The notes below the pieces were generated by a model, which saw nothing but the letters and a program-made list of their open reading frames with translations, was not told the DNA's origin and searched no databases. Below, one piece after another: positions 21,177 through 44,543 of a stretch of 64,000 nucleotides of DNA. The DNA is taken from assembly GCA_963736005.1 (NCBI GenBank), contig CAVTNB010000001.1, forward strand, positions 1,856,001 through 1,920,000, in the 5' to 3' direction. The position numbers and the translations under genes were made by a program. This stretch comes from an uncultured Pseudomonadota bacterium (GTDB lineage Bacteria > Vulcanimicrobiota > Vulcanimicrobiia > Eremiobacterales > Eremiobacteraceae). Positions within the stretch are counted from its first letter, which is position 1. Every line of letters begins with the position of its first letter.

Positions 21177-21884
21177 ATGACCGAACTGCGGCCCGCTCGG
21201 CTGCCGAAGATTCTGGTTGTCGACGATGAGGCCACGATTCTGCAAACCTTACGCTTCAATTTGGAGCGCAACGGCTACGCCGTGTGCACGGCGGGTGACG
21301 GCCGTCAAGCGCTCAGCGTTGTCGAAACCGAAAAGCCCGATCTCGTCCTGCTCGATATCATGTTGCCCGTGCTTGATGGGATAGAGGTCTGCCGCGAGAT
21401 CCGCCGCCGCTCGAGCGTGCCCGTGCTCATGCTGACGGCAAAAGATCAAGAGATCGACAAGGTGCTCGGATTGGAAATTGGAGCGGACGATTACATCACC
21501 AAACCGTTTTCCATTTACGAGCTGCTGGCGCGAGTCAAAGCGCACTTACGGCGTCTCGCGCAGCCGAACACGCAGGCCCCCAGTGCCGTGCTGCGCGGCG
21601 GCCCGCTCGAGCTTGAATTCGATCGCCAGCGCGTGACCAAAGCCGGCAAGACCATCGATCTCGCCCCAAAAGAATTTGGTTTGTTGCACGTCTTGCTGCA
21701 AAATAAAGGACGAGTGGTCACTCGACAGGTGCTGCTAGATCGCGTCTGGGGCTTTGACTTTTACGGCGATCAGCAAACCGTCAACGTTCATATCCGCTGG
21801 CTGCGCGAAAAAATCGAAGATGATCCAAACGACCCCAAGCACATCATCACCGTGCGCAGCCGGGGCTATCTGTTTCGCGACTAG
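21177..21884 (+). CDS. phoB: OmpR-family response regulator, PhoB/PhoP type
   Basis: LVVDDE, LLDIMLP, GADDYITKPFS, TVNVHIRWLREKIE; upstream of phoR-phoU-pst. Confidence 0.9.
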   Translation: MTELRPARLPKILVVDDEATILQTLRFNLERNGYAVCTAGDGRQALSVVETEKPDLVLLDIMLPVLDGIEVCREIRRRSSVPVLMLTAKDQEIDKVLGLEIGADDYITKPFSIYELLARVKAHLRRLAQPNTQAPSAVLRGGPLELEFDRQRVTKAGKTIDLAPKEFGLLHVLLQNKGRVVTRQVLLDRVWGFDFYGDQQTVNVHIRWLREKIEDDPNDPKHIITVRSRGYLFRD

Positions 21885-21898
21885 GCCACGAGCGGTTT

Positions 21899-23128
21899 TT
21901 GGCGGTACGAATCTTTCTGGGCGCAGCCCTCATCACCATCATCGTCGCGGTCTTTTTGACTGCCTCGCAAGGCCCCGCGCTCCGCGATACGGTCCTCGTT
22001 GTCGCCGTTGTGATCGCGCTTGTGCTGGCAGTCTTCTTAGCTCCGGTCTTGCAGCGGCCGCTTGCAGACCGTCCATCGGAGGCAATGGCGGCGCCGCCGA
22101 CCGGACCCAGCCTCGATCACATTCTCGACGCCCTTCCGGCAGGCGTTATTACCATCGCAGCGGATGGAAGAATCGTCGTCTTCAACGCAGCGGCGGGAGA
22201 GATGTTCGGTGTGGTTGCGGATCGCGCCAGCGGACGCACTTTGATCGAAATCGTGCGCAATTCGGAACTCGATCGGCGCGTCAGCGCGACATTGCGAGAC
22301 GGAACGACTGAGACGATCGAGCTGACGCACGTCGGCGCTGTGGAGCGCCGGCTGCAAGTCATGACGCGTCCCCTCAATGGCGACCTCAAGCCAGGTGTTT
22401 TGGTCATCGTGACGGACCAAACGCGGATGCGCGAGTTAGAGGCCCTGCGCCGCGAATTTGTCTCCAACGTTTCGCACGAACTGCGTACGCCTCTTACCTC
22501 GGTCAAACTCATGGTCGAAACGCTGCAAAGCGGAGTCGATCTTCTGGCGCAAGAGCAATTTCTAGCAAACATTGGCGCTGAGACCGATCGTATGATTGTC
22601 CTCGTGGAGGACTTGTTGGATCTCGCGCGCCTGGAAAGCCGAAAGCTCGAGCTGCGGCTGAGCACGGTTGACGTGAGCGAGCTCGGCCGGCAAGCGGTTG
22701 CGGCGCAACGTCCGCGGGCGACGGCAGCGCAGATCAATTTGGTCTTTTCGGCTCCGCAAACCTCGCTCCCGATCCTAGCGGATCGAGACAAGCTCTACCA
22801 AGTGCTCACCAATCTGCTCGACAATGCGTTGCGCCACACTCCGGCGCAGGGCAACGTCACCTTAACGGTGGCTGCCCACGATGGAGAGATCACAATCGAG
22901 GTCGCTGATACCGGTTCGGGCATCGCATCGAGCGCACTGCCGCATATCTTCGAACGGTTTTATGTCGTGGACCCGGCTCGGGCCCGCGGTCATTCGGGAA
23001 CGGGTTTGGGTCTTGCGATCGTGAAACACATCATAGAGGCCCACGGTGGCACCATCGCAGCGGAAAGCGAACTGGGTGCGGGCTCAATCTTTCGCTGTAC
23101 GCTGCCCGTGGGTTTACAAACAAGCTAA
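21899..23128 (+). CDS. phoR: Phosphate sensor histidine kinase (2 TM, PAS, HisKA, HATPase)
   Basis: EFVSNVSHELRTPLT, NLLDNA, DTGSGI, IFERFY, GTGLGLAI; TTG start. Confidence 0.9.
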   Translation: MAVRIFLGAALITIIVAVFLTASQGPALRDTVLVVAVVIALVLAVFLAPVLQRPLADRPSEAMAAPPTGPSLDHILDALPAGVITIAADGRIVVFNAAAGEMFGVVADRASGRTLIEIVRNSELDRRVSATLRDGTTETIELTHVGAVERRLQVMTRPLNGDLKPGVLVIVTDQTRMRELEALRREFVSNVSHELRTPLTSVKLMVETLQSGVDLLAQEQFLANIGAETDRMIVLVEDLLDLARLESRKLELRLSTVDVSELGRQAVAAQRPRATAAQINLVFSAPQTSLPILADRDKLYQVLTNLLDNALRHTPAQGNVTLTVAAHDGEITIEVADTGSGIASSALPHIFERFYVVDPARARGHSGTGLGLAIVKHIIEAHGGTIAAESELGAGSIFRCTLPVGLQTS

Positions 23129-23141
23129 GCGGTCCTATAAT
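23113..23141 (+). promoter_or_regulatory. Sigma70-type promoter for phoU
   Basis: TTTACA (23113-18), 17-bp spacer, TATAAT (23136-41). Confidence 0.75.
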
Positions 23142-23156
23142 GCAATGGAATACTGT

Positions 23157-23182
23157 GTAGCAGCGGACCTTTAGGGTCCGCT
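23157..23182 (+). repeat. REP-like hairpin, family A
   Basis: GTAGCAGCGGACCTTTAGGGTCCGCT; one base longer than 933-957. Confidence 0.75.
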
Positions 23183-23200
23183 CACGAGGTACCGCCAACT

Positions 23201-23944
23201 TTGGGTCGTGAGAACTTTCATCGGATCCTGGACGAAACGCAGCAAAACGTTCTGCGCATGGGCAGTTTGGTTGAAGAAGCGATCACCAAAGCGGTGGACG
23301 CATTGTCGCGCAGCGACGTCAAGCTTGCCGATGAGATCTTACGGGCCGACGATTACATTGACGACCTCAATGTTCTGATCGAGACGAACTGCCTGAATCT
23401 GCTGGCTTTGCAGCAGCCCATGGCGAGCGACTTGCGCACCATCGCGGCCATGCTCGACATCATCATCGACCTCGAGCGGATCGGCGACCACGCCTGCGAC
23501 ATTGCCCAGATCACCAAGAACCTTGCCAACGAACCGCAGCTCAAACCGCCCATCGACATTCCCCTGATGGCGGCAAAGGCCCGCGAAATGCTGCGGGAAT
23601 CCCTCGACGCGTTTTCCCATCACGACGCCGAGATGGCCCATGCCGTGCCGCAAAAGGACGACGAGGTCGACCGCCTCTATCGCAAAGTGTTCGCCGAGCT
23701 CATCCAGTTCATGACGAAGGACGCCAAGGCGATTGGCCGCGCCAGCAATCTGCTTTTAGTGGCATTGTATCTCGAGCGCATTGCCGACCACGCAACAAAC
23801 ATCTGCGAGCGCGTCGTTTACATGGTGGAGGGAGTGCCAAGAAAGCTCAAGCGGTCGGTTGTGGAGTTTGACCAGGTGCTCGCCCACAGCGATGAAATCA
23901 TGCAGTCGAGTCCAGGTTCAGTGGACCAACCAGCGGGAGGTTAG
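23201..23944 (+). CDS. phoU: Phosphate signalling protein PhoU
   Basis: QQPMASDLR, DLERIGDHA, DDEVD, LERIADHATNI. Confidence 0.96.
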   Translation: MGRENFHRILDETQQNVLRMGSLVEEAITKAVDALSRSDVKLADEILRADDYIDDLNVLIETNCLNLLALQQPMASDLRTIAAMLDIIIDLERIGDHACDIAQITKNLANEPQLKPPIDIPLMAAKAREMLRESLDAFSHHDAEMAHAVPQKDDEVDRLYRKVFAELIQFMTKDAKAIGRASNLLLVALYLERIADHATNICERVVYMVEGVPRKLKRSVVEFDQVLAHSDEIMQSSPGSVDQPAGG

Positions 23945-23951
23945 GTGAGGT

Positions 23952-24005
23952 CTTAACCTTGCTTAACATGCCCTTAACCTACGCTTGACATCCCTCCGTT
24001 ATCGT
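23952..24005 (+). promoter_or_regulatory. Pho box array plus -10 element for pstS
   Basis: TTAAC at 23953, 23963, 23974 and TTGAC at 23985; TATCGT at 24000. Confidence 0.8.
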
Positions 24006-24080
24006 CGTATTGAGCGTCGTAGAGCATGGCTCCCCTCGGGCCGCCTCTAGTCGGCGTTGCCTCACCGACAGGAGCAAACA

Positions 24081-25115
24081 GTGAATCGTCAACGTTTCTT
24101 ATCGTGGTTCTCAATCTTCGGCCTGCTTATGTTCGCAGCGGTCGGCATTGCCTCGGCCGATCAGCAAATCACGGGCGCAGGTTCGTCGTTTGACAACCCG
24201 TTCTTCCAGCGAGCGTTTTACGAGTACAGCAAAAACAACAGCGGCGTGCAGGTCAACTATCAAAGTATTGGGTCCGGCGGCGGCATCCAACAGTTTACCG
24301 CCAAGACGGTTGACTTTGGCGCTTCGGACGTGCCGCTCCAACCAGCGGAGATGAAAGCGGCTCAAGCATCCAATGGTGACGTCGTCCAGGTTCCCGTCAC
24401 CTTGGGCGGCGTGGTGGTCGCGTACAACGTGCCAAACGTTAACAATCTGAAACTAACCCCCGACGTGCTCGCCGACATCATGCTCGGCAACATCACGAAT
24501 TGGAACGACCCGCGCATCGGCCGCTTGAACCCTGGCGTCACATTTCCGAACCTTCCGATCCTCGTCGTCCATCGCGCGGATGGCAGCGGCACGACGTATA
24601 TTTTCACCGACTATCTGAGCAAGGTAAGCGCCGACTGGAAAAACAAGGTCGGCAACGCAAAGGTGGTCAGCTGGCCAGCGGCGTCGTCGGTTGGAGTCAA
24701 AGGCAACGAGGGAGTCGCTGGGCAAATTAGCAACACTCCCGGCGCGATTGGGTACGTCGAGCTCGCGTATGCGCTTGATAGCAAAATCTCATACGCGGCG
24801 ATCCGCAACAGCGCAGGCCAGTTTGTCGTTCCGACCGTCGATACCGTCCGAAACGCGGCTGCGCACAAACCGAGCGTGAGCCCGCAAGACTTCTCGATCG
24901 TCAACATGCCAGGGGCGGACAGCTATCCGATCTGCGGCTATTCCTGGGTGATGTTGTGGAAGAACCAGTCCGACGCGGCCAAGGGACAAACGCTCGTCAG
25001 TCTCTTCCGATGGCTGGTGACAGATGGACAGGCATTGGCAGTCCGGGTTCGCTACGTCAGTCTGCCGGCGAACGTGCAGGCGGAGGCAACGAAGGCGCTG
25101 GCCAGCATCCACTAG
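24081..25115 (+). CDS. pstS: Phosphate ABC transporter substrate-binding protein
   Basis: TGAGSSF, YQSIGSGGG, DFGASD, HRADGSGTT, GYVE; GTG start after CAGGAG. Confidence 0.97.
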   Translation: MNRQRFLSWFSIFGLLMFAAVGIASADQQITGAGSSFDNPFFQRAFYEYSKNNSGVQVNYQSIGSGGGIQQFTAKTVDFGASDVPLQPAEMKAAQASNGDVVQVPVTLGGVVVAYNVPNVNNLKLTPDVLADIMLGNITNWNDPRIGRLNPGVTFPNLPILVVHRADGSGTTYIFTDYLSKVSADWKNKVGNAKVVSWPAASSVGVKGNEGVAGQISNTPGAIGYVELAYALDSKISYAAIRNSAGQFVVPTVDTVRNAAAHKPSVSPQDFSIVNMPGADSYPICGYSWVMLWKNQSDAAKGQTLVSLFRWLVTDGQALAVRVRYVSLPANVQAEATKALASIH

Positions 25116-25145
25116 TACATCCACCGGTTCCAAGACCTAAGTTCG

Positions 25146-25193
25146 GGAAGGCGGTGCGGCCCTGGCTAACAAACCAGCGCATCGCCTTCCTTT
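25146..25193 (+). terminator. Stem-loop between pstS and pstC (partial terminator or mRNA stabiliser)
   Basis: GGAAGGCGGTGCG pairs with CGCATCGCCTTCC, followed by TTT. Confidence 0.65.
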
Positions 25194-25223
25194 GATACAA
25201 GAGATGACGGACGGTCAAGATCG

Positions 25224-26210
25224 ATGACCCAGAATGGCGCCGACGTTGTGCGTGTACCAGCGGTTACGACGCCGGCGCGTTTGCGTTCGTCCTCAAACCC
25301 CATCGGCGATCGTATCGTGATTGGCGCCTTCTCGGTAAGCGCATGGCTCGTGCTGCTCATGGTCGTCTGGTTATTTGTCACGCTGCTGATTGCAGCGTGG
25401 CCTGGCATCAAGACGGTGGGCATCCACGCGTTTCAAAGCGCTACCTGGGATCCGACGGGCCGTCGATACGGGCTCCTCTCCTTCATTTACGGCACTGCGG
25501 TCACGTCTGCAATCGCGCTCGTGTTGGCTGGGCCAGTCGGCATCGGCGCAGCCCTCCTTTTGGCGGAGATCGCGCCGCGCAGGTTGGCGACACCGGTTGC
25601 CATGCTCATCGAGCTGCTAGCGGCGGTTCCGAGCGTGGTCTTCGGCATTTGGGGTCTCTTTGTGCTCGCACCCGTGATGCGGACCGTGGTCGAACCGGCC
25701 CTCGCGCGCACGCTTGGCTTTCTTCCCCTATTCCAAGGCTACTTTTACGGCGTGGGCATGCTGACCGCAGGCATTTTGCTCGCCATCATGGTGCTCCCAA
25801 CCGTGTCGGCCATCTCTCGCGATATCTTCGAGGCCGTGCCGCGCGACCAACGCGAAGCCATGTACGCGCTGGGAGCCACCAAATGGGAAGTACTAACCCG
25901 CGCGGTCATCCCCTATGCGCGCCCGGGTATTATTGGAGCCCTCGTTCTCGCTCTCGGCCGCGCGATGGGCGAGGCGATGGCCGTGGTGATGGTCATTGGC
26001 AACAAGCCGGCAATTTCGATGTCGCTTTTTTCTCCCGCGTACACGCTGGCCTCCGTTCTGGCCAATGAATTCAGCGAGGCGACGGGGCAAGAATACGTTT
26101 CCGTGCTCGTCGGCATCGGGTCGATGCTCTTCATCGTTAGTATGATCGTCAACGTGTTCGCGCGACTGTTGGTGCGCGGCGTGCGCGGGCCAAAGGGTAC
26201 GCGGGCCTGA
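25224..26210 (+). CDS. pstC: Phosphate ABC transporter permease PstC
   Basis: ELLAAVPSVVFGIWG, REAMYALGAT, GRAMGEAMAV. Confidence 0.97.
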   Translation: MTQNGADVVRVPAVTTPARLRSSSNPIGDRIVIGAFSVSAWLVLLMVVWLFVTLLIAAWPGIKTVGIHAFQSATWDPTGRRYGLLSFIYGTAVTSAIALVLAGPVGIGAALLLAEIAPRRLATPVAMLIELLAAVPSVVFGIWGLFVLAPVMRTVVEPALARTLGFLPLFQGYFYGVGMLTAGILLAIMVLPTVSAISRDIFEAVPRDQREAMYALGATKWEVLTRAVIPYARPGIIGALVLALGRAMGEAMAVVMVIGNKPAISMSLFSPAYTLASVLANEFSEATGQEYVSVLVGIGSMLFIVSMIVNVFARLLVRGVRGPKGTRA

Positions 26211-27046
26211 TGTCGCTCTTCGTCCGGCAAGCTTGGAACGCAATCATGCTTGTCGTGGCATGGTTATGCGCTGGAGTAGCCGCCGCGTTGCTCGCGCTGA
26301 TCGTGATCTATGTTATTCAACGCGGTGGACCGGCGCTCAACGTACAGTTCTTCACGCATCTTCCGACCCCGGTTGGGATCCCAGGCGGCGGCGTCGCCAA
26401 TGCTGCTGTCGGGTCGCTCATGATCATCGCGATGTCTTCGGCGATCGCGATCCCGATTGGAGTCCTGGCCGGGATTTATCTGGCGCTGCTCGGGCGCGGC
26501 TGGTTGGCGCAAGCCGTGCGATTCCTCAGCGACGTCTTGACTGGCGTGCCCTCGATTGCCATCGGGTTGTTTGCCTATACCATCATCGTTGTACCCCAGC
26601 GCCATTTCTCCGCGATCTCTGCCGCGGTCGCGCTCGCCGTCATCATGTTGCCCATTGTCGTGCGCACCACGGAGGAGGCCGTCCGACTTGTGAACCCGGC
26701 AATTCGAGAGGGCGCCCTTGCCCTCGGGATGGAGGCGTGGAAGGCGATCGTGCTGGTCACCGTACCCTGTGCGCGCGCCGGCATCGTGACGGGTTCACTT
26801 CTCGGGATCGCACGCGTTGCCGGTGAGTCGGCACCGCTGCTGTTTACCGCTTTTGGCAGTCAGTTCTGGAGTTTGAATCCCAACGGACCAACGGCTGCGC
26901 TGCCGCTACTCGTCTTTCAATATGCCATCGCGCCGTACAAAGATTGGCAGCTCGCGGCCTGGGGTGGCGCGTTGACGCTGATTCTCCTTGTTTTTGTGCT
27001 CAACATTACCGCCCGGATTATTTTCCCGGCACGGCTGCCACGATGA
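26210..27046 (+). CDS. pstA: Phosphate ABC transporter permease PstA
   Basis: [37 protein letters not shown]. Confidence 0.97.
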
Positions 27047-27840
27047 GCAACGCAACCGAAGCGGCAGAGAAATCTCTCTATACCAAAAATCTCAGCGCCT
27101 GGTATGGCACGCACCTTGCCGTCCGGGGCGTCTCAATGGATTTTCGGCCTGGTCAGATCACGGCGCTCATCGGCCCATCCGGATGCGGCAAGTCGACACT
27201 GCTCCGCTGTCTCAATCGCATGCACGAGATCATTCCTGGAACGCGGGTCGAGGGCGAAGTTTGCCTGGATGGTCAAAACCTTTACGAGCCGGGGGTCAAT
27301 CCGACCGCCATGCGGCAGCGCATCGGCATGGTCTTTCAACGGCCCAACCCATTTCCAACGATGTCGATCCTCGAGAACGTGCTCGCGGGCGTGCGCTTGA
27401 CGAATATGACGAGAAACCGTGGCGTCCTCGCCGAGCTTGCCGAACACAGCCTTCGGAAGGCCGCGCTTTGGAACGAAGTCAAGGATAAGCTGCATGACTC
27501 CGGCGCGTCACTCTCCGGCGGTCAGCAGCAGCGGCTGTGCATCGCGCGCGCGCTCGCCGTCGAACCGGAGGTGCTGCTGATGGACGAGCCGGCATCTGCG
27601 CTCGATCCCATTTCAACGACCAAGATCGAAGACTTAATGCGTGAGCTCAAAGGCGCGTACACGTTCATCATCGTCACGCACAACATGCAGCAAGCGGCGC
27701 GTGTGTCGGACTTCACCGGATTTTTGCTCGCAGGCGAAAATGAACCCGGTCAGCTTATCGAGTTTGACGTGTCCTCAAAGATCTTCACGACCCCAAAAGA
27801 TAAGCGGACCGAAGACTACATCACTGGCCGTTTCGGCTAG
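27043..27840 (+). CDS. pstB: Phosphate ABC transporter ATPase PstB (canonical)
   Basis: [44 protein letters not shown]. Confidence 0.98.
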
Positions 27841-28096: not shown

Positions 28097-30796
28097 ATGC
28101 GTTTGGATAGATGTGCTGCTCTTTTCGCCGCCCTTGCCATGCTGTTGGGGCTGTCGCCATTGACCGCGGTGGCCGATACGGCCTCGGGCACGAGCGTTGT
28201 GGGCTCGATCGTCGACACGGACGGCGGGCTAGCCATTCCAGGTGCGGGTATCGATTTGTACTGCCAAGGCGCGCATGTACAGCACACAACCACCGCGCGG
28301 GACGGATCGTTTTTCTTCAACGACGTGACCCCGGGGGTGTGCACGCTCTTGGTCACGGCATCGGGCTACCAATTGGCTCGGTCGGCAAACATTCCGGTGG
28401 CTGCCGGAGCGCGGGTCGAGTTCCGCGTCGCCTTGACGAGGATATCATCCGCGGCTGCAGCACGCACGATTGGCCGGGTTATCGTCGCAGCTTCGAACAC
28501 GCTGCAAACCAGCTCGACCATCAACACGCACATCGATCCCAGCATCCTGCAGACGCAGAATTACATGCGGGCGGGCGATGCGCTCATCTCCGTCCCGGGT
28601 GTCAACATAGCAACGAGTTCCTCGCTTGGCGACGACCAGTCCGTCAGCATTCGTGGATTCGAAGCGACTGAAACTGCGACGCTGCTCGACGGCCATCCCA
28701 TTGGGCCGATTGGTGCCTTGGGCAACGGTTTTGATTATCAGGACTCGCCTTTTTTCGGGATCCGCGATATTGAAACGGTCTTCGGCTCGGGGGCAACCGG
28801 AGTCTATGGCGCATCAACGATTGCCGGTGCGGTCAACTTTCTGACCATCAACCCGACCCCGCAGATCCACGCGCTCTTCGAGCAAGGCGCGGGCTCCTAC
28901 GGGAAAGCTCTTACCGGCATACAGACGACCGGGACAGAAAACAAACTCGGATTTGCCTTCTCCCACGGCGTCGAGGGAACGTACGGTCTTTTTCCGCCAT
29001 CCGATCAGGTTGAATCCGGACTCAACGGATCGGACATCCGTGCCGCGACGTTCGCAACGAACACCTATGTCGTGAGCAGTGATTACGTCCTTCGAAACGA
29101 TGTCGGCAAGCTGACGTACGCATTTTCACCGAAGACCAATTTTTTGCTCAGCGCGTACTCCGCGACCACCTGGGATGACAAGAGTGGCAATGGTGATAAT
29201 GACTTTCTCACCTATCAGCAGAACCTCTACAATACGTTCAAGGGGCTCAATGGTAATGGTGGCAAATCCAGCGTTTGCCTCAGCAGCTGCGGAACGCCCC
29301 AAGAAGTCGACGGCAATTGTTCCAATTTCACCCAAGCAGCCCTGAGCGATGCCCCAGCCGGCTTCTCGTGCCTGAACCCGTACAAGTTTTCTCAGGAGAC
29401 TTCGGGGCCCTCAGGCGGCGGCGGCGGCCCTTGGCAGGCGATTCGCAACCAAGACTATCACGCGCGGCTCACGCAAGGGTTGGGGCAGGGCCAAATCAAC
29501 GTCGACACTTACATCGACAAATACGGATTAGACTACAACCGTGCCGCAGCAAACCAGTCGTTCCATAGCGACTTCTATCGAACGACGGGTTTGCTCATCG
29601 ACGATGAGTTTGCGAGCACGCTGCATAACATCGCATTCGGCTACAACTATCAGCACCAGCAGCACACCGGCGACACGTTCCCGTTCTTTGATCAGAACGG
29701 CAATCAGTTTAACATTTTGGCCGCGAACCAAGAGTTTGACCTCAACCAAAATAATTTCTTCGCGCGCGACGAATACACGCCGAATTCGAAACTCTCGATC
29801 TTTGCAAATCTCTGGCTTAATCACTCGGCCAATACGGGTAAGAACTCGTTCGACCCGCGCCTGACATTCCAATTTCGCCCAACCGGCGTGGATATCGTTC
29901 GACTGACGGCGGGGCATTCCAACAGCGAGCCGGATCCATCGCTCCTCTATGCGATGCCGTCGTACAACACGACCCCCAACAACATCAATCCACTGTGCGG
30001 CGCACAACTCAACGGGATAGGGAGCGTCAGCAATCCGACGCTCTCACCGGAGACGGCTACCGACGCAGAGGTCTCCTACGGGCGGCGAATCGGATTGCTC
30101 GATACCCTCGAAGTGGACGTGTATAATACGACAGAGTTCAACGCTCTGTTCAGCGGCAATCTGCCGCTGTCAGCACTGGGGAGCACGCAGGTGCCGCCAA
30201 GTCTCATCGCCGCCTATCTCAGACGCATCCAGAATTTTTGCCATAACAACCCCACGGTTGCCGACCTCGCGGTGAGCACGACGTACAACGCGGCGTCAGC
30301 GCGCTATCGTGGTATTCAGCTTTCGGGCAATTTCGGGCTTCTGCCTCATTTTACGGCGAACGCAGATTATGACGTCCAATCGTCAACCTATCTTGGCGTT
30401 CCCGACGCGATCCTTGCCTCCAATGTGACCATCATTAACGGCTCGCAGATCTACGGGATTCCGCTCCACAAAGCCAACTTGGGCTTCGACTACAACACCC
30501 CAAGCGGTCTCGACGTCGAAATCGACGGGCACTATATTGGAGATGGCAACAGTTACAACCGTCCGCATTTCATCTTCACCAATGCAAGCATTTCCCAGCA
30601 GGCCAACCGCATCACGACAACGCTGGGCATCAACAACATCTTCAACACCGCTGCGCAGCGCTACGGCTATTTCGGACTTGGTGTGTTTCAACCCGAGAAC
30701 AAATTCGGCGCAGACCAAAATGCCTTCGATCAGAGCAGCGAAGAATTTGGTATCCCGCCGCTTCAGTACTTCTTCACGATGACGTACAAGGTCTAG
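28097..30796 (+). CDS. TonB-dependent receptor with N-terminal carboxypeptidase-regulatory-like domain
   Basis: Signal peptide, plug motifs (VPGV, SIRG, LLDGHP, AGAVNFLT), LSPETA, GINNIFN, terminal amphipathic beta strand. Confidence 0.9.
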   Translation: MRLDRCAALFAALAMLLGLSPLTAVADTASGTSVVGSIVDTDGGLAIPGAGIDLYCQGAHVQHTTTARDGSFFFNDVTPGVCTLLVTASGYQLARSANIPVAAGARVEFRVALTRISSAAAARTIGRVIVAASNTLQTSSTINTHIDPSILQTQNYMRAGDALISVPGVNIATSSSLGDDQSVSIRGFEATETATLLDGHPIGPIGALGNGFDYQDSPFFGIRDIETVFGSGATGVYGASTIAGAVNFLTINPTPQIHALFEQGAGSYGKALTGIQTTGTENKLGFAFSHGVEGTYGLFPPSDQVESGLNGSDIRAATFATNTYVVSSDYVLRNDVGKLTYAFSPKTNFLLSAYSATTWDDKSGNGDNDFLTYQQNLYNTFKGLNGNGGKSSVCLSSCGTPQEVDGNCSNFTQAALSDAPAGFSCLNPYKFSQETSGPSGGGGGPWQAIRNQDYHARLTQGLGQGQINVDTYIDKYGLDYNRAAANQSFHSDFYRTTGLLIDDEFASTLHNIAFGYNYQHQQHTGDTFPFFDQNGNQFNILAANQEFDLNQNNFFARDEYTPNSKLSIFANLWLNHSANTGKNSFDPRLTFQFRPTGVDIVRLTAGHSNSEPDPSLLYAMPSYNTTPNNINPLCGAQLNGIGSVSNPTLSPETATDAEVSYGRRIGLLDTLEVDVYNTTEFNALFSGNLPLSALGSTQVPPSLIAAYLRRIQNFCHNNPTVADLAVSTTYNAASARYRGIQLSGNFGLLPHFTANADYDVQSSTYLGVPDAILASNVTIINGSQIYGIPLHKANLGFDYNTPSGLDVEIDGHYIGDGNSYNRPHFIFTNASISQQANRITTTLGINNIFNTAAQRYGYFGLGVFQPENKFGADQNAFDQSSEEFGIPPLQYFFTMTYKV

Positions 30797-30799
30797 GTG

Positions 30800-30853
30800 A
30801 TTAAGCCGCCTTAACCCGCAGTTGATAGTTCCTTAATGTTCGGCCCGTAGACT
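30800..30853 (+). promoter_or_regulatory. Pho box array plus -10 element for the SLH porin
   Basis: TTAAG 30801, TTAAC 30811, TTGAT 30822, TTAAT 30833 (10-11-11 spacing as at pstS); TAGACT at 30848. Confidence 0.75.
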
Positions 30854-30930
30854 ACAAGCACGCAGTGCCTTAGCGACGGGCCTACTTCTTGTTCGCCTCA
30901 CCATTGAGTCTTTAGAAAAGGATACGTTCA

Positions 30931-32664
30931 ATGCGAAAACACCGGCTGCTTCTTGCGTCGGCGGTTGTCTGCGCTGTGTTCGCCCTCGCGATTCCGGCGC
31001 TCGCCGACGATTCTAACCCAGTGCCGGCTCCGGCCGCTTCCGCAACGTCCGCGGCGCCCGACGCAGGGGCGGTCGCGACCGCCAGTCCTGGAAGCGGTGC
31101 GAGCAGTGCAGACGGAATTGGCGTTTCCATCGCCACCGGGGACAACAACCCGTTTGCCGACGTTCCCACGGACTCGTTTGCCTACAAGGCCATCGTGCAG
31201 CTACACGATTTGGGTTATCTCAAAGGGTATCCGGACGGGTTGTTTCATGGCAAACGTAACCTCACACGCTACGAAATGGCGGTCATGGTCGACCGCGTTG
31301 TGAACGAGCTCGAGTACCAGCTCCACGATCCCAACGGAGCGGTCCGAGTGAATGCTGCGGCCATCGCCGATGCCCGCATGCTGCTCGATCAGTATGGGTC
31401 GCAGATCAAGGACCTGCAAACCAAAGAAGCCGCGCTAGATACCCGCCTGACCACCGCGGAGACCACGCTCAACCGCATGCAAATCCATGCGTACGCATAC
31501 GTTCGCGCTCCCGGCACCTATACCGAAACCGTGAGCGCATTCCAGCCAAATGGCACACCGTTGAAGCCTGGGACGATTGTCAAAGATGATGCGCAAAGCT
31601 ACGTGGTCGGCACCAACTCGCGTGGAACGGGCTACTCGGTCTTTCGTCTCATCATTCAAGGCGACCTCGACAAGCAAGCCAGCTATGCCGTGCGTTTGGA
31701 AAACAAGAACTTCTTTGGTCAAGCCAACGTCAACGGCCTCGACAACGTGAATCCAGCCGGGCCAACCACGAGCACGTATAACACAGGTGGGCTCTTACGC
31801 TTGAACTACGCGTATCTGAAGTATCAATTCACGAACTCGCCTGTCTATCTCGAGGCTGGCAAGTACACGCTGCGCAGCGACCCGCTCGGACTCGCGTATG
31901 ACAATGACTACTACAATGGCGGACTCTTTGGTTTCAAGAATTCGAAGGTGTATGGCTGGCTGGGCTTCGGCCAGACCGGAGGCCCGGATCTTGGCAGCAC
32001 TTCTCCGTTTGCCTACGTGCCCGGTCCAGCTTCGAGTGGAGCTGTGCCGAACACCCAATTCATCGTCCTCGCGCATGTCGGCGTGACTCCAACAAGCCGC
32101 GCACTCATAACGGGAAGCTGGGTTGAACTCCAAGGTTATAAGAACAACTTCTGGTGGACCTTGAAGCAGACGTACCAGCCGCTCCAGGCAAATTTGTCAG
32201 TCGGCGCCATAGGCGCCAGCTACCAGTTCGGTCCCTCGCTCAATCTCGCGGTGCAAGGCTTGACTCGATTCGGCAACGACCCGACAACGTTGAAAGGATG
32301 GACCGACAACAAGGCATTCTGGGGCGTTGTCAATGTGGGTCACACGGCTCAAAAAATCAACAACAACTTCATGGAGCTAGGGTGGATCGGTACTGGCGCG
32401 CACTCCGTGCTCAACCCGGAGACGTGGGTCAACGGCACGCCCTTCTACACTTTTTACTATACCGGTCAGGCCAACGACCGTAAGATGGCCTACATCGGGG
32501 TGCACCACTGGGTGAGCAATTACATGCGCGTTGGCCTTAACTACCAATATTGGGGGATCAACACGCCACTTCCGTTGTTCTCAGGCACGGGCGTTCCAGC
32601 TGGTTCGTACATCATGAACAACGACAACCGCGCGCTCTTTCTGAACACGCTCATGCAATTCTAA
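30931..32664 (+). CDS. SLH-domain outer-membrane beta-barrel protein (OmpM/SomA-like porin)
   Basis: Signal peptide, SLH motif FADVPTDSFAY...GYPDG...TRYEMA, coiled-coil stalk, beta-rich region, C-terminal Phe. Confidence 0.88.
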   Translation: MRKHRLLLASAVVCAVFALAIPALADDSNPVPAPAASATSAAPDAGAVATASPGSGASSADGIGVSIATGDNNPFADVPTDSFAYKAIVQLHDLGYLKGYPDGLFHGKRNLTRYEMAVMVDRVVNELEYQLHDPNGAVRVNAAAIADARMLLDQYGSQIKDLQTKEAALDTRLTTAETTLNRMQIHAYAYVRAPGTYTETVSAFQPNGTPLKPGTIVKDDAQSYVVGTNSRGTGYSVFRLIIQGDLDKQASYAVRLENKNFFGQANVNGLDNVNPAGPTTSTYNTGGLLRLNYAYLKYQFTNSPVYLEAGKYTLRSDPLGLAYDNDYYNGGLFGFKNSKVYGWLGFGQTGGPDLGSTSPFAYVPGPASSGAVPNTQFIVLAHVGVTPTSRALITGSWVELQGYKNNFWWTLKQTYQPLQANLSVGAIGASYQFGPSLNLAVQGLTRFGNDPTTLKGWTDNKAFWGVVNVGHTAQKINNNFMELGWIGTGAHSVLNPETWVNGTPFYTFYYTGQANDRKMAYIGVHHWVSNYMRVGLNYQYWGINTPLPLFSGTGVPAGSYIMNNDNRALFLNTLMQF

Positions 32665-32670
32665 AGGCGT

Positions 32671-32696
32671 GGGGCGATTTTCCAATCGCCCCCTAC
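32671..32696 (-). repeat. REP-like hairpin, family C
   Basis: Reverse complement GTAGGGGGCGATTGGAAAATCGCCCC. Confidence 0.8.
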
Positions 32697-32731: not shown

Positions 32732-33541
32732 ATGGCAAGGCCTTGGGAGCGGCTTTTTGTTGGGGCGGCTGGGCTTTTTGCTTGGTGCGTGATCCTCACG
32801 CCATTTTCAATCGTGACGGTTCTCATGGTTGCCGCGCTCGCGGGTCAGCAGCGGCCCGATCCGTTGTTCTTTCTGGGGAATCTCGTCGTTGAGCTTTTTG
32901 CCACGCTGCTCGTCGGGGTTGTGGGAGCGGTTATCGGCGCCAGCATCGGCATTGGCACGGCCCTGCTCACCCAGGAGCTCGTGACAGGAAGGCTGAGCCA
33001 AGCCATCGGCGCTGCCACTTCGGGTCTCTCAGTGTTTCCAGCCGTCGTGCTGGGCTGGTTCGGCGCGACCCTGATTCTGCCGGCTCTTTCCGGCCACACT
33101 CCGGGCGCCGTTTTTGCTGCCGCCTGCGTGGTGGTGTCCATCGCTGTCATTTCGCGATCGAACGTGCTCGCGGTCCGCTTGCTCGGCGCGCTCGCACCTT
33201 CGGTCCGCGAAGCCGCCGCAGCTGCGGGTGCCGGTGCGAGCCGAGTGACGGCACACGTGACGATCCCGGCGTGCAAGCGGCAATTGCTCGGTATCTATGC
33301 AGATGCGCTGTCCAGAGCAGTTGGTGAAGCAGCGGGCGTTTCCGTTGTGTTCCTGGCCGCTGCGCGGGCCGGATATCCCGTGTCTCTCTTTACGATACCG
33401 AGCTCGATCATGGCGCATGCGCACACGATGCAATTGATCGATGCGGGCATCGCGCAATCAGCGCTTGTGGTTTTGGCCTTTGCCGCGACGAGCAAGATCA
33501 TCGCAGCACGCCGAATTGGGAGCCTCCAGTGGGTCTCGTGA
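32732..33541 (+). CDS. Divergent PstC-like permease
   Basis: VFPAVVLGWFG, REAAAAAGA (EAA loop) and SRAVGEA align to PstC; start placed at ATG 32732. Confidence 0.8.
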   Translation: MARPWERLFVGAAGLFAWCVILTPFSIVTVLMVAALAGQQRPDPLFFLGNLVVELFATLLVGVVGAVIGASIGIGTALLTQELVTGRLSQAIGAATSGLSVFPAVVLGWFGATLILPALSGHTPGAVFAAACVVVSIAVISRSNVLAVRLLGALAPSVREAAAAAGAGASRVTAHVTIPACKRQLLGIYADALSRAVGEAAGVSVVFLAAARAGYPVSLFTIPSSIMAHAHTMQLIDAGIAQSALVVLAFAATSKIIAARRIGSLQWVS

Positions 33542-34350
33542 CCGTCGGCACGCCGAAACCGGACACGTTTCGGTCGCGCGACGTGCTTGTCACGGCGCTC
33601 TCGTACATTGCCGGAACGGCCGGCGCGATGGCGTTCGTGGCCGTGCTGGTCGCGCTCGTTGCTCTTGGTTGGCAAGATTTCGCACGAGTGCTTGCGGTGC
33701 CGCAGGGGGCAGGGAGCGCGCTCGCCATTTCGGCACTCGTTCTTGCGATCGCCTTGCCAGTGACGTTTGCGATCGGCCTGTGCGCCGCGGTGTGCGCAAC
33801 GGATCCTAGCATCGGTGGCGTCGCGACTCGCGCGGTGCGTGAGTCCCTGGAGTGGTCGGTAGGCATACCGCCCGTTGTTATCGGCGTGGCCGTTTTTTTT
33901 ACGGTCGTGGCCTTCGTGCACTCATCGGTTGTCGGCGCGGCCGCTCTCGCCCTCATCGTCTTGAATCTACCCAACGCCACTGCCCGTTTGGCACAAGCAT
34001 TCTCGGGCGTTCCCGAAGTGGCGCGCGAAGCTGCAGCGGCCCTTGGAGCCTCGTCTGCGTCAGCGTTTTTTGGGTTGACGCTCCCGCAATCGGCATGGGC
34101 GGTCGCCGCAGTACTCTGTGCTCTCGCTGGGCAGATGGTCGGTGAGACCTCCGCGGTTGTGCTGGCAGTGAGCGCAAGCGGCGGAGCGCAACCACTCTCT
34201 GCCGCGATTTGGCACTTTGCTTCGAATGTGAGCCTAGCTGCGACCGAGGCCGCATCGTGTCTTGTTCTCGTGCTCGTCGTGGCGGCTTGCACGGCGCTGT
34301 CGAAAGATTTTTCCCGCAGACAGCTCGAAACATCGGCGACCAAAACGTGA
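33529..34350 (+). CDS. Divergent PstA-like permease (conserved transport Arg replaced by Gln)
   Basis: GIPPVVIG, REAAAALGA, AGQMVGETSA versus canonical [10 protein letters not shown]. Confidence 0.8.
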   Translation: MGLVTVGTPKPDTFRSRDVLVTALSYIAGTAGAMAFVAVLVALVALGWQDFARVLAVPQGAGSALAISALVLAIALPVTFAIGLCAAVCATDPSIGGVATRAVRESLEWSVGIPPVVIGVAVFFTVVAFVHSSVVGAAALALIVLNLPNATARLAQAFSGVPEVAREAAAALGASSASAFFGLTLPQSAWAVAAVLCALAGQMVGETSAVVLAVSASGGAQPLSAAIWHFASNVSLAATEAASCLVLVLVVAACTALSKDFSRRQLETSATKT

Positions 34351-35126
34351 GCACGCAAGGCGGACCAACGGTCGAGACGAAGCTGGAAGCATCGCAGTTG
34401 CACGTTTGGTTCGGCGATAAGCACGCACTGCGCGGCGTGAATATCTCAGTCGTTGCGGGCAGAACGGTCGCTTTCATAGGGGCATCCAAAAGTGGCAAGA
34501 CGACGCTGCTTCGATCGTTCAATCGGTTGCACGATCTCAATCCGCGAGCGCGGCTGCATGGCAGCGTCAAAATCGACGGAGCTGAGATTTTAGGACCAGG
34601 CGTCGACGTTGCCGCGCTGCGACGCCGTGTCGGAATGACCTTTTCCACACCCACCGTCCTCCCGACATCGATCTTCGACAACGTCGCGTTTGGGTTGCGC
34701 GCAAAAGGGCTGCGCGATCGCATCCTGATCGAAGAGAAAGTAGAGCGTTCGCTGCGTCGGGTGCTTCTTTGGGATGCGGTCAGCCCGCTGCTCGATCGTG
34801 CGCCCTCGGATCTCACCATCGAACAGCTCCAACGGCTCTGTCTCGCTCGCGCGATGGCGCTCGACCCAGAAGTGCTGCTTTTTGACGACCCAACCGCAAC
34901 ACTCGATCCCGTGGCCGGACTCGCCTTCGAAGAAGTCTTCATACCACTGCGCCGCGACCATACCGTGCTCATCGCCACAAATAATTTGGAACAGGCGGCC
35001 CGACTGTCGGACACGACGTGCTATCTCGCCAGCGGTGAAGTCATCGAGAGCGGCGAAACCCCGCTTGTTTTCAGCCGGCCGACGGATACGCGAACCGAAG
35101 ACTTCTTGGCCGGCAGATCGCCCTAA
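34347..35126 (+). CDS. PstB-like ATP-binding protein with degenerate catalytic motifs
   Basis: Clear PstB paralog (GKTTLLRSFNRLHD, QAARLSD, RTEDFLAGR) with LTIEQ, LLFDD, ATNN and TFS; GTGA overlap with the pstA-like gene. Confidence 0.88.
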   Translation: MSTQGGPTVETKLEASQLHVWFGDKHALRGVNISVVAGRTVAFIGASKSGKTTLLRSFNRLHDLNPRARLHGSVKIDGAEILGPGVDVAALRRRVGMTFSTPTVLPTSIFDNVAFGLRAKGLRDRILIEEKVERSLRRVLLWDAVSPLLDRAPSDLTIEQLQRLCLARAMALDPEVLLFDDPTATLDPVAGLAFEEVFIPLRRDHTVLIATNNLEQAARLSDTTCYLASGEVIESGETPLVFSRPTDTRTEDFLAGRSP

Positions 35127-35145
35127 AGCCCTCGAGGAGGCCGTC

Positions 35146-36546
35146 ATGAAGCTGGACGTGACGACGCCAGCGCTCGGACCGTTGCGTGCGGATGGCATGC
35201 ACTACTACAACAACGCTCTTGAGACGATTGGCCATACGCCGCTCGTCAAGCTCAACCGCGTCATGGACAGTGCGTCTTGTCTCGTGCTAGCGAAGGTCGA
35301 GTACTTCAACCCCGGCGGATCGGTCAAAGATCGACCTGTGCTTGCGATGATTCGCGATGCCGAAGAGCGAGGATTGCTCCGGCCTTCGGGGACGATCGTC
35401 GAGGCGACATCGGGCAACACTGGGACGGGACTCGCGATGGTTGCGGCCATCAAGGGCTATCGGTGCATTCTGGTCATGCCGGACAAGGTGAGCGACGAAA
35501 AAGTGCGCTTGTTGCGGGCCTATGGCGCGGAAGTCGTGATCACGCCAACAAAAGCGCCCGCCAGCAGTCCCGAGTCTTATTACGGAGTGGCGGCACGCCT
35601 GGCGAGCGAGATTCCTGGCGCGTTTCAGCCCAACCAATTTGCCAATCTGCTCAATCCGCGAGCGCACGAAGAAACAACCGGTCCGGAAATTTGGCAGCAG
35701 ACCACGGGCAAGATCACCCACTTCGTCAGCGGGATCGGAACCGGCGGCACCATTTCAGGCGTTGCCCACTATCTCAAAGCGCAAAACGCCTCGATCACCG
35801 TGATCGGTGCGGATCCGGAAGGTTCCATTTATTCGGGAGATACGGCGAAATCGTACAAGGTCGAAGGCATCGGAGAAGATTTCTTACCCGCAACCGTTGA
35901 CTTGCGAGCGATTGACCGAATCGAGCGAGTTTCAGATAAGGAATCCTTTCTCATGACGCGCCGAGCATGCCGCGAAGAAGGGCTGCTGGTCGGTGGCTCA
36001 TCAGGCACGGCGCTCGTGGCGGCGCATCGGGTCGTCCGCGAGTTGGCGCCCGAGGCGATCGTCGTTGTCCTTTTGCCTGACAACGGCCGCGGCTACCTCT
36101 CGAAGATCTTCAACGATGAGTGGATGCGAACGAACGGATTTCTGGGTGAAGCGGGCCTCGCCGCAACTGTTGGCGAGGTGTTGCGTGCCAAGGGAGCACT
36201 CCCCAAGTTGATTACGGTCTCTCCCTCCGATACCGTCCGTCACGGCATTGAGCTGATGCGCGAGTTTCAGATTTCACAGATTCCCGTTGTGGAGAACGGG
36301 GATATGGTCGGCAGCATCAATGAGGTGGCCGTGATGCAGCTCATCTTCGATCACTCGGACATTGTGCATGCCGAAGTGAAGGACGTCATGGGGCGGCCCT
36401 TCCCGTTGCTCGATGAGAAAGAAGAGGTCAGCCGCGCCTATCGAGAGCTTTCTCTTGGCCACGCGGCCGTCGTGGTGAGTCACGAAGCAAAGGCGATCGG
36501 GGTGCTCACCAAGATGGACATCATCAACTATCTATCGGTGACCTAA
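35146..36546 (+). CDS. cbs: Cystathionine beta-synthase with C-terminal CBS domains
   Basis: NPGGSVKDR, EATSGNTG, GIGTGGT, EGIGEDF, YLSKIFNDEW, CBS pair; GAGGAGG RBS. Confidence 0.93.
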   Translation: MKLDVTTPALGPLRADGMHYYNNALETIGHTPLVKLNRVMDSASCLVLAKVEYFNPGGSVKDRPVLAMIRDAEERGLLRPSGTIVEATSGNTGTGLAMVAAIKGYRCILVMPDKVSDEKVRLLRAYGAEVVITPTKAPASSPESYYGVAARLASEIPGAFQPNQFANLLNPRAHEETTGPEIWQQTTGKITHFVSGIGTGGTISGVAHYLKAQNASITVIGADPEGSIYSGDTAKSYKVEGIGEDFLPATVDLRAIDRIERVSDKESFLMTRRACREEGLLVGGSSGTALVAAHRVVRELAPEAIVVVLLPDNGRGYLSKIFNDEWMRTNGFLGEAGLAATVGEVLRAKGALPKLITVSPSDTVRHGIELMREFQISQIPVVENGDMVGSINEVAVMQLIFDHSDIVHAEVKDVMGRPFPLLDEKEEVSRAYRELSLGHAAVVVSHEAKAIGVLTKMDIINYLSVT

Positions 36547-36554
36547 GAGCGCAT

Positions 36555-37694
36555 ATGGATTTTGCAACCAAAGCCATCCACGTAGGCCAAGACGCGGATC
36601 CCACAACTGGCGCGACGATCGTGCCCATTTATCAGACCTCGACCTACACGCAGCGCGCGCCGGCCGAGCATCTCGGTTTCGACTACTCGCGCAGCGCAAA
36701 CCCTACGCGCCTCGCGCTCGAACGCTGTCTCGCGTCGCTAGAAAATGCCAAGCATGGCCTGTGTTTTGCAAGCGGTATGGCCGCGACGTCGGCCACGCTC
36801 AATCTCCTCTCGGCCGGCGATCACGTCGTCGTCACCGACGACCTGTATGGCGGCACGTTCCGGCTCTTCGATAAGGTGCTCAGGCGCTACGGTCTCACCT
36901 TCACCTATGTGGATGCGAGCGACCCTTCCGCGATAGCCGCCGCCCTGGGTGGATCCACGCGCATGGTCTGGCTTGAATCACCATCCAACCCGCTCATGAA
37001 GCTGGTCGACCTGAGTGCAACGGCGGCTCTTTGTAAACCGCGCGGCGTCCTCGTTGTGGTCGACAACACGTTTGCGACGCCGTTTTTGCAAAATCCACTC
37101 GACTTGGGGGCGGACGTCGTCGTGCATTCGACCACGAAGTACATCGGTGGGCACTCCGATGCGATCGGTGGTTTTGCAGCAACCAACCGTGACGATCTCC
37201 ATGAGGTGCTAAAGTTTCATCAAAACGCCGTTGGCGCCGTGCCCGGGCCGTTTGATTGTTTTCTGACGCTGCGCGGCGTCAAGACGCTAGCACTGCGCAT
37301 GCGCGAGCACGATCGCAACGCTGGAGCGATCGCCGCCTTTCTCGCCGAGCGGCCAGATGTCGAGAAAGTGTATTATCCGGGACTGGTGTCGCATCCACAC
37401 CATGACTTGGCAAAACGTCAAATGCGTGGTTTTGGCGGGATGATTTCATTCGTTCCCAGTGGTGGTGCCAAGCGAGCGCGAGCAATCGCGATGGGGACGA
37501 AGCTTTTTTCGCTGGCGGAGAGCCTTGGCGGCGTCGAATCGCTCATCAGCCATCCCGCATCAATGACCCACGGCGCTATTCCCAAGGAAGATCGGGAAGC
37601 GCGAGGCGTTTTAGATTCGCTGTTACGCTTGTCGGTGGGGATCGAGTCGTCGGCAGACCTCATCGCCGACCTTGCCCACGCTCTTAGCGTGTAG
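36555..37694 (+). CDS. Cystathionine gamma-lyase / gamma-synthase family PLP enzyme
   Basis: PIYQTSTY, YSRSANPTR, FASGMAA, DNTFATP, HSTTKYIGGHSD, LAESLGGVESL. Confidence 0.93.
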   Translation: MDFATKAIHVGQDADPTTGATIVPIYQTSTYTQRAPAEHLGFDYSRSANPTRLALERCLASLENAKHGLCFASGMAATSATLNLLSAGDHVVVTDDLYGGTFRLFDKVLRRYGLTFTYVDASDPSAIAAALGGSTRMVWLESPSNPLMKLVDLSATAALCKPRGVLVVVDNTFATPFLQNPLDLGADVVVHSTTKYIGGHSDAIGGFAATNRDDLHEVLKFHQNAVGAVPGPFDCFLTLRGVKTLALRMREHDRNAGAIAAFLAERPDVEKVYYPGLVSHPHHDLAKRQMRGFGGMISFVPSGGAKRARAIAMGTKLFSLAESLGGVESLISHPASMTHGAIPKEDREARGVLDSLLRLSVGIESSADLIADLAHALSV

Positions 37695-43183: not shown

Positions 43184-43269
43184 ACGGATGCGACATTAGT
43201 CCTTGAGGATTCACGAGCTTTTGGTCGAAGCGCGCGACCTCGCTGTTTTTGCCCACTTCTGGAGGTTCC

Positions 43270-44543
43270 ATGTCTTCGACGCTCGATCGTTCAGCTGTTC
43301 AAGCATCGCTCAACGTCTGGCAAATGGCGCAACGCCAGCTGGATAACATCGCGGAGATCATCGGGTTGGATTCTTCCATCCACGGTTACTTGCGCGAGCC
43401 AAAACGCATCTTGCAAGTGTCGGTGCCGGTCCGGATGGACTCGGGGACGCATCGCGTGTTCGCAGGCTATCGCGTGCAGCACAACATGGCGCGCGGGCCA
43501 GGCAAGGGTGGCATTCGCTACCATCCCGACGTGACGCTCGACGAAGTCAAGGCGCTCGCCATGTGGATGTCGTGGAAGTGCGCGCTCGTCAACATTCCGT
43601 TCGGCGGTGCCAAGGGCGGCGTGATCTGCGATCCTAAGAACATGTCGATGCAGGAACTTGAGAATCTCACCCGGCGCTTCACGAGCGAAATCTCGATCAT
43701 CATCGGCCCTGAAATAGACATTCCCGCTCCCGACGTCTACACGACGCCGCAAATCATGGCGTGGATCATGGACACATACTCCATGCAAAACGGCTATTCG
43801 ATTCCCGGGGTTGTGACCGGCAAGCCGATTTCCATCGGCGGGTCGCTCGGGCGCGACAAAGCGACCGCTCGCGGCTGCCTCTACGTCGTCGACGAGGCGA
43901 TGAAGGAACTGAAGCTGCCCGCAGGCGCGCGCGTAGCAATTCAAGGCTTCGGGAACGCCGGATTGCACGCCGCCGAGCTCATGGGCGCCGCGGGTATCGC
44001 ATCGTTGCTGTCTCTGACAGCCGAGGCGGCGTCGCCAGCAGTGCAGGGCTCGATGTGGCCAAGCTCATCGCGTACAAGGCTGAGACCGGCTCCGTTGTCG
44101 GGTTCTCAGGCGGCGAAAGAATCACGAACAAAGAAGTGCTCGAATACGATTGCGACGTGCTGGTTCCGGCCGCGCTCGAAAAGGTCATCACACAAGAGAA
44201 CGCGCCACGCATCAAGGCGAAAATCATCGCCGAAGCGGCCAACGGCCCAACGATGCCGGACGCAGACGACATCCTCTTCGATCGCGGCATCATGGTGCTG
44301 CCCGACATCTTGGCCAACGCCGGCGGCGTGACCGTATCGTACTTCGAGTGGGTGCAAGACCTGCAAGAGACTTTCTGGGAAGAGCAGACGATCAACGATC
44401 GCCTGCGCCGCATCATGGTGCGCGCGTTCCGAGACACGCTCGAGCAGGCCCGACGGTTGAAGGTGAGCATGCGGCGCGGTGCGTACGCGGTTGCGGTTGG
44501 TCGCGTGGCCGAAGCAACCAGTTTGCGCGGAGTGTATCCCTAG
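43270..44543 (+). CDS. gdhA: Glu/Leu/Phe/Val-family (glutamate) dehydrogenase, one frameshift near 43990
   Basis: GPGKGGIRYHP, GGAKGG, DIPAPD, QGFGNAG in one frame; EAANGP and NAGGVTVSYFEW in another. Confidence 0.9.

Follow-up and report, generated by a model that had tools for sequence, protein, structure and literature searches.

The closest described relative of the locus reported here is the phosphate-specific transporter PstSCAB of Escherichia coli (PDB IDs: 9k3s; 9k3x; 9k3y), whose protein families and gene order are the same as those of the cassette considered below. PstA Arg220 and PstC Arg237 are phosphate ligands within the membrane, paired with Glu224 and Glu241 respectively, and the periplasmic loops dock PstS, as described in PMC12976172. 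PMC5775613 reports that replacing PstA Arg220 or PstC Arg237 with glutamine stops transport while signalling persists, and presents a model in which the open, inward-facing transporter favours the phosphatase activity of PhoR via PhoU and the closed transporter the kinase. In the same account, Pho output is low in a PstB mutant with a predicted locked-open state and high in a closed, hydrolysis-dead one, neither of which transports, and a Walker B Glu-to-Asp or Glu-to-Gln change alone traps the closed, kinase-on state. PhoU binds both PstB and PhoR, according to PMC4423584 and PMC13577022. Signalling by shape, independent of transport, has been debated since the Arg220 mutant of 1988, and the full Pst signalling complex has resisted isolation.

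Several bacteria carry two Pst sets that differ in origin and are unequal in regulatory role: Streptococcus pneumoniae (Pst1/Pst2; PMC4913102), Mycobacterium tuberculosis (PstA1/PstA2; PMC4996455) and Enterococcus faecalis (tandem pstB1/pstB2; PMC12096839). All of these are described as transporters. Both E. faecalis PstB ATPases retain all four of the motifs that matter below, namely the Q-loop Gln, the LSGGQ signature, the catalytic Glu and the H-loop His. Non-hydrolytic sites with Glu-to-Asp changes, loss of the His or an altered signature are known from SUR1, TAP and TM287/288, and SUR1 is a transporter fold serving as a regulator; these proteins are, however, exporter-type and keep one active site. 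E. coli PstB Gly48 and Lys49 mutants reportedly lose repression, which is not counted as evidence here.

We analysed a window of 64,000 nucleotides from an uncultured bacterium of the family Eremiobacteraceae (contig CAVTNB010000001.1 of assembly GCA_963736005.1). It holds a canonical pstSCAB operon and, downstream, a second set of genes, pstC2-pstA2-pstB2 (the cassette). The relevant features are as follows.

21177..23944, + strand: response regulator, PAS histidine kinase and phoU (profile matches and context)
23952..23990, + strand: CTTAA direct repeats 10–11 bases apart, upstream of pstS, a likely PhoB box
24057..27840, + strand: canonical pstS-pstC-pstA-pstB, all transport and ATPase motifs intact
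28097..32664, + strand: TonB-dependent receptor and SLH-domain porin, in a variable slot between pstB and pstC2
32732..33541, + strand: pstC2, divergent PstC-type permease, 269 aa (profile match)
33529..34350, + strand: pstA2, divergent PstA-type permease, 273 aa (25% identity to the neighbouring PstA)
34132..34134, + strand: codon CAG for Gln202 of PstA2, in register with E. coli PstA Arg220
34347..35126, + strand: pstB2, predicted pseudo-ATPase, 259 aa (motif alignment, structure model)
35146..36546, + strand: cystathionine beta-synthase gene (cbs), 19 nt past the pstB2 stop
36555..37694, + strand: cystathionine gamma-lyase/synthase family gene (cgl), next after cbs

The names phoB and phoR are used from context, the scores against the PhoB and PhoR models being below their cut-offs. 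The genome (G000, 84% complete) has a single phoU and one PstS-family match, which lies in the canonical operon; a cognate pstS for pstC2-pstA2-pstB2 was not found in it, whereas in some relatives another pstS occupies the slot directly before pstC2. Across the family this slot spans 0.1–8.6 kb and contains phosphoesterases, porins, receptors or the second pstS. The cassette genes overlap in order and lie downstream of phoB-phoR-phoU-pstSCAB in every family locus whose contig reaches far enough. Compared with the known dual systems, the cassette differs in being predicted dead and in having one PhoU and one PstS in common with a working pump. Pst sets in pairs with unequal roles have thus been described before, but we found no report of either a natural Arg220Gln paralogue or a dead PstCAB in the open-access literature.

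The first-pass annotation of this DNA had drawn attention to a CAG (Gln) codon at 34132–34134 in the paralogue, and the sequence of the window bears this out: the open reading frame at 33529–34350 (+ strand) encodes the 273 residues of PstA2, with LAGQMVGETSA around Gln202. Its equation of this Gln with Arg220 also holds. Arg202 of the canonical PstA (26210–27046; codon 26813–26815) aligns without gaps with Arg220 of E. coli PstA in the cryo-EM structure (9k3s_A). The HMMER alignment of PstA2 with 9k3s_A is weak (E 8e-4) and contains two compensating one-residue gaps near the site, with Gln202 still opposite Arg220; as the EAA-motif Arg and the R/Q site are 36 residues apart in PstA2, canonical PstA and E. 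coli PstA (R184 to R220) alike, the register is ungapped. A sequencing error can be ruled out, since Gln recurs in the closest genome (L011) and in 17 further genomes, encoded by CAG or CAA. PstA2 thus resembles the E. coli Arg220Gln and Arg237Gln mutants in having Gln at the Arg220 position, and the phenotype given for R220Q, loss of phosphate transport with signalling intact, is confirmed at second hand by PMC5775613.

The residue is not random among orthologues. In the 28 family genomes analysed, which are all those with a match apart from the unpublished G008, G011 and G013, the Arg220 equivalent of PstA2 is Gln in 19, Arg in seven, Glu in one and Gly in one, against Arg in 26/26 ordinary PstA proteins; by genus, Gln occurs in six and Arg in two of ten. 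Among 37 PstA2 representatives at 50% identity, the top-scoring single-domain matches of 150 listed, there are 20 Gln, 5 Arg (two of which may be ordinary PstA), 4 Glu and 8 others, and 43 PstA2-related clusters at 90% identity have Gln in 24, Arg in 17, Lys in one and His in one. With weighting by genus, polar residues make up 90% of this column, whereas the rest of its helix is apolar; in conservation the column ranks only 54th of 255. When average PstA2 evolution from Arg was simulated on the PstA2 tree with a generic LG model, about 0.4% of 20,000 sites ended with Gln at 19 or more tips out of 28, which argues that the site is still constrained and that Gln is more frequent than expected by chance. 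In a tree of marker genes from 27 genomes, the genera with Arg group together in a nested clade, so that Gln was either gained twice or gained once and reversed to Arg once; the node that decides between the two has a support of only 80.

The partner site in PstC2 tells a less uniform story than the first-pass annotation supposed. Its R..GE motif is indeed kept in the window (Arg195/Glu199, codons 33314–33328, equivalent to E. coli Arg237/Glu241), but among 27 genomes (one frameshift fragment excluded) 19 have this Arg and eight have Leu or Ala instead, in each case together with Gln in PstA2. The PstA2/PstC2 pairs across genera are R/R, Q/R, Q/L, Q/A, E/R and G/R. Because seven genomes retain both arginines, the phosphate site may still be alive in some of them. 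The equivalent of Ser133 is retained in 2/28 PstA2 proteins and is Pro in that of the window. Among the easily reached replacements of Arg, Gln is the mildest, needing a single transition from CGG or CGA, so the likeness to the laboratory mutant requires no special convergence.

The two permeases are divergent though recognizable. PstA2 reaches 52.1 bits against TIGR00974 (PstA), short of the cut-off of 193.45 and of the 253.6 of canonical PstA, though this remains its best-matching family and its PF00528 match is above cut-off. It retains Glu206 (E. coli Glu224) and the EAA motif (REAAAALG); the Ala and Gly of this motif do not vary among 21 aligned orthologues. PstC2 scores 43 bits against a cut-off of about 195. 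An Atlas search returned generic permease clusters only.

The largest departure from known Pst systems is in PstB2. In the window its Q-loop Gln is replaced by Ser100 (34644), the signature LSGGQ reads LTIEQ (34812), the catalytic Glu is Asp181 (34887) and the H-loop His is Asn212 (34980); the Walker A motif, GASKSGKTT, departs from GxxGxGK, with G-K-T and the Walker B Asp retained. Over the 28 genomes the Q-loop Gln and LSGGQ are kept in none, the H-loop His in one and the catalytic Glu in three, and PstB2 is equally degenerate in genomes with Arg in PstA2. Ordinary PstB proteins of the same class keep all four motifs, with the exception of two frameshifted frames and one fragment. In a wider set of 99 PstB2 clusters all four motifs are gone in 90, while the Walker A Gly and Walker B Asp are present in 99, the Walker A Lys in 71 (Arg in the other 28) and the equivalent of Gln160 in 96. 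PstB2 scores 262 against TIGR00972, below the cut-off of 343.2. The nucleotide-binding-domain fold is nonetheless intact in the predicted structure (pLDDT 92; TM 0.91 to E. coli PstB, 9k3x_C), for which the best matches are E. coli PstB chains. Searches with PstB2 matched family members and 55 loci of other phyla; the PstB proteins of these 55 keep the catalytic Glu and the His and nearly always LSGGQ, so the loci searched in this way gave no further lineage with a dead PstB.

Lacking the signature motif, Q-loop Gln, catalytic Glu and H-loop His, PstB2 is predicted, on the basis of ABC-transporter enzymology, to be unable to hydrolyse ATP or to close its dimer. In contrast to SUR1, TAP and TM287/288, both halves of the lesion are in one importer subunit, so that a PstB2 homodimer would have no active site. 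The E. coli laboratory mutants likewise differ: each is a functional pump, complete with PstS and ATPase activity, that has been altered at a single residue, whereas the cassette is without pstS, has lost four motifs and has a Gln that is common in PstA2 but not required. Gln202 is therefore not the switch; it is one lesion among many in PstC2-PstA2-PstB2 and by itself a minor feature, a detail of a conserved, predicted pseudo-transporter. Of the first-pass proposal that evolution has reproduced the signalling-only mutant, the register, the parallel in E. coli, the non-random occurrence of Gln and the broad notion of a non-transporting complex stand. What does not stand is the role given to the Gln, which is not fixed (Arg in 7/28) and beside whose Arg counterpart the ATPase motifs are lost all the same. 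As PstB2 lacks its catalytic motifs in 28/28 genomes, including those with Arg, a Gln202Arg reversion is predicted from sequence to restore nothing.

Though degenerate in its motifs, the cassette is under purifying selection and is not decaying. The dN/dS values (NG86; some pairs near saturation) are 0.03–0.11 for pstB2 (10 pairs), 0.09–0.24 for pstA2 (10) and 0.08–0.15 for pstC2 (8), with those of the canonical genes slightly lower at 0.03–0.17. A PstB2 orthologue is present in 31/32 Candidatus Eremiobacteraceae genomes and 18/18 good ones (28/29 and 16/16 without G008, G011 and G013). PstA2-profile matches better than 1e-50 are confined to this family among 301 genomes across the phylum, and named records bearing PstB2 are mostly Candidatus Eremiobacteraceae, Eremiobacteraeota or Vulcanimicrobiota. 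Trees of the joined C, A and B proteins place the cassette beside another type of Pst, located after phoBR in the sister family (support of 94 and 96). An AU test (LG+G4, 24 rows, with long branches as a caveat) rejects grouping with the neighbouring pstSCAB type (p = 0.014; 0.0002 for the family's own copies), and the PstB-only tree does not settle the sister group of PstB2. The cassette is likely a remnant of an older system, retained after another took over transport; synteny gives no confirmation of this origin, since none is common to the sister family beyond phoBR.

What, then, might be the function of a pump that is predicted not to pump? The reading we favour, tentatively and at just short of an even chance, is that Gln202 is a tolerated polar change in the abandoned site of a predicted non-transporting complex that likely brakes the Pho regulon or sets its threshold, a signalling role that we infer from genomic context. 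With PstB2 able neither to split ATP nor to form a closed dimer, PstC2A2B2 would rest open and inward-facing, a state that, following the E. coli model, would signal "phosphate replete" via PhoU and favour the phosphatase activity of PhoR. A permanently open copy, read through from PhoB-activated promoters, would provide negative feedback or an induction threshold while canonical PstSCAB would do the pumping. The site probably stays Gln or Arg as the polar partner of Glu224 that holds helix TM5, and the Gln itself would uncouple nothing. The closest functional analogue, predicted to be non-transporting and inward-facing, is E. coli PstB Q160K, which PMC5775613 describes as locked open and "phosphate replete"; PstB2, however, keeps Gln160, has lost LSGG, the Q-loop Gln, the Walker B Glu and the His instead, and has a working pump alongside. 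Since the Walker B change alone gives a closed, kinase-on state, the direction of the signal depends on the supposition that loss of the signature blocks closure. Moreover, PhoU controls the kinase without Pst in M. smegmatis, according to PMC12301784, so that signalling by conformation may not apply to the phylum studied here. With somewhat less confidence, a wider statement seems possible: that Eremiobacteraceae have split the jobs of Pst between a working pump and a dead one kept only as a PhoU/PhoR platform, a natural and family-wide counterpart of the signalling-only laboratory mutants; that the residue changed to Gln, or back to Arg, on more than one occasion; and that this second complex may sense nucleotide status and be co-transcribed with cysteine/H2S genes.

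A natural, stable and selected complex that is unable to cycle would be a clean test of the shape model and a good target for a PhoU-bound structure, as well as an uncommon example of an entire bacterial ABC importer that has become a pseudo-transporter. A practical consequence is that databases label the cassette genes as phosphate transport proteins, so that uptake capacity is double-counted in Eremiobacteraceae.

The foremost alternative, unlikely in our view, is that dead subunits mix into the canonical pump as PstB-PstB2 dimers or hybrid membrane pairs, and so limit phosphate uptake without any direct signal reaching PhoR. PstB2 shares 41% identity with the PstB next to it, and with lesions in both halves of the composite ATP sites it would impair a mixed dimer at both. 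In E. coli, Pst uptake that goes unchecked is toxic (PMC4423584). Genomes of the sister family have both pstB types intact, in some cases as a tandem pair, and three with their only pstB beside phoR have pstCA elsewhere, which makes assembly across types plausible. Against this, one dead subunit would be enough, yet three overlapping genes are retained together under selection, which suggests a complex of their own.

An improbable variant is that PstB2 binds ATP or ADP without splitting it and reports energy or phosphate state to PhoU/PhoR or to another partner, with the membrane subunits as anchor. The retention of the Walker A Gly and Lys/Arg and of the Walker B Asp, with the hydrolytic residues lost, points this way, as do 40 positions at which conservation is higher among PstB2 than among ordinary PstB proteins and which possibly form a new binding surface. 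The rest of the P-loop, however, drifts, the A-loop aromatic is gone in at least two genera, and the Lys-to-Arg change seen in 28 of the 99 clusters would weaken binding.

Quite doubtful is a third possibility, that PstC2-PstA2 carry another solute, perhaps linked to cysteine/H2S, as a facilitator or driven by canonical PstB, with Arg-to-Gln as a change of specificity. Its appeal comes from cbs, directly downstream of pstB2 in 28/28 family loci and mostly by less than 30 nt (25 loci measured), from a site that stays polar among apolar neighbours, and from the second pstS directly upstream in some relatives. The single PstS-family match in the genome, with none cognate, speaks against it; moreover, the residue pairs at the site vary widely between genera, unlike those of a ligand site, and the median PstA2 identity between genera is only 25%.

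The first-pass reading in its strict form, in which the complex cycles and senses outside phosphate via the common PstS, Arg220Gln having removed transport, appears very unlikely despite the exact register, the enrichment of Gln beyond chance and the E. coli precedent. ATPase motifs are gone in 28/28 genomes, including the seven with Arg, and nine of the 28 are without Gln. The first periplasmic loop is shorter in PstC2 and the periplasmic loops are shorter in PstA2 of the window; those that dock PstS in E. coli are 7–10 residues shorter in the clade of the window genome, the second of them being full length in some genera. That the cassette is a functionless, decaying duplicate is scarcely credible: its long branches and lost catalytic residues would fit, but dN/dS is far below 1, the frames are open in all ten genera, where the cassette is retained, and the one frameshift among 27 pstC2 copies lies in a locus with several others.

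The CTTAA repeats upstream of pstS, a likely PhoB box, are the best match in the genome to the matrix derived from them, and repeats with an 11-base spacing precede pstS in 16/19 loci by a strict pattern. TTAA repeats also precede the TonB-dependent receptor and the SLH porin. Neither the repeat pattern nor the matrix finds a PhoB-box-like site directly before pstC2, and a generic promoter and terminator scan there found nothing, so that Pho control of the cassette would rest on read-through. The cassette is likely transcribed in this way from PhoB-activated upstream promoters, over a distance of 0.1–8.6 kb; in three genomes pstC2 starts no more than about 100 bases from pstB. In a soil metatranscriptome, the only run with 5% of the words, one 151-base contig matches pstB2 (34983–35133) without differences, and pstC2 and pstA2 are uncovered; this is too little to count as evidence of expression, and the contig may be DNA rather than RNA.

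A near-consensus sigma-70 promoter (TTTACA-17-TATAAT, 23113–23141) lies before phoU and is conserved in most of the family, so that phoU is likely constitutive, with the repeat boxes lying before pstS. Two more CTTAA repeat sites (G000:C1:873698 and 1078820) may mark other Pho-regulated genes.

The tightest linkage of the cassette is to cbs-cgl and not to phoU. These two genes (35146–37694) are at the end of the Pho locus family-wide and in none of 40 loci of the other families of the class, and a link from phosphate starvation to cysteine/H2S metabolism through them is possible.

In the sister family, eight loci (L031, L033–L035, L039, L041, L043 and L047) have an intact second-type pstB alone just after phoR, without pstSCA. 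That such a solo gene might be purely for signalling was considered and dropped, the pstB beside phoR being the only pstB match in G028, G029 and G040, where pstCA is on another contig.

Upstream of phoB, the segment 19148–21060 encodes a predicted secreted protein of 244 aa and a multi-pass membrane protein of 393 aa, the latter conserved at the same place in the family and both without a Pfam or NCBIfam match. The alanine-tRNA ligase gene (16572–19176) is in several frames and a glutamate dehydrogenase-like gene (43249–44543) in two, which look like assembly indels rather than biology. Finally, the palindromes GGGGCGATT..AATCGCCCC (32672–32693) and CGGACCTTTAGGGTCCG (about 23157–23175) recur between genes, also in close relatives, and are REP-like.
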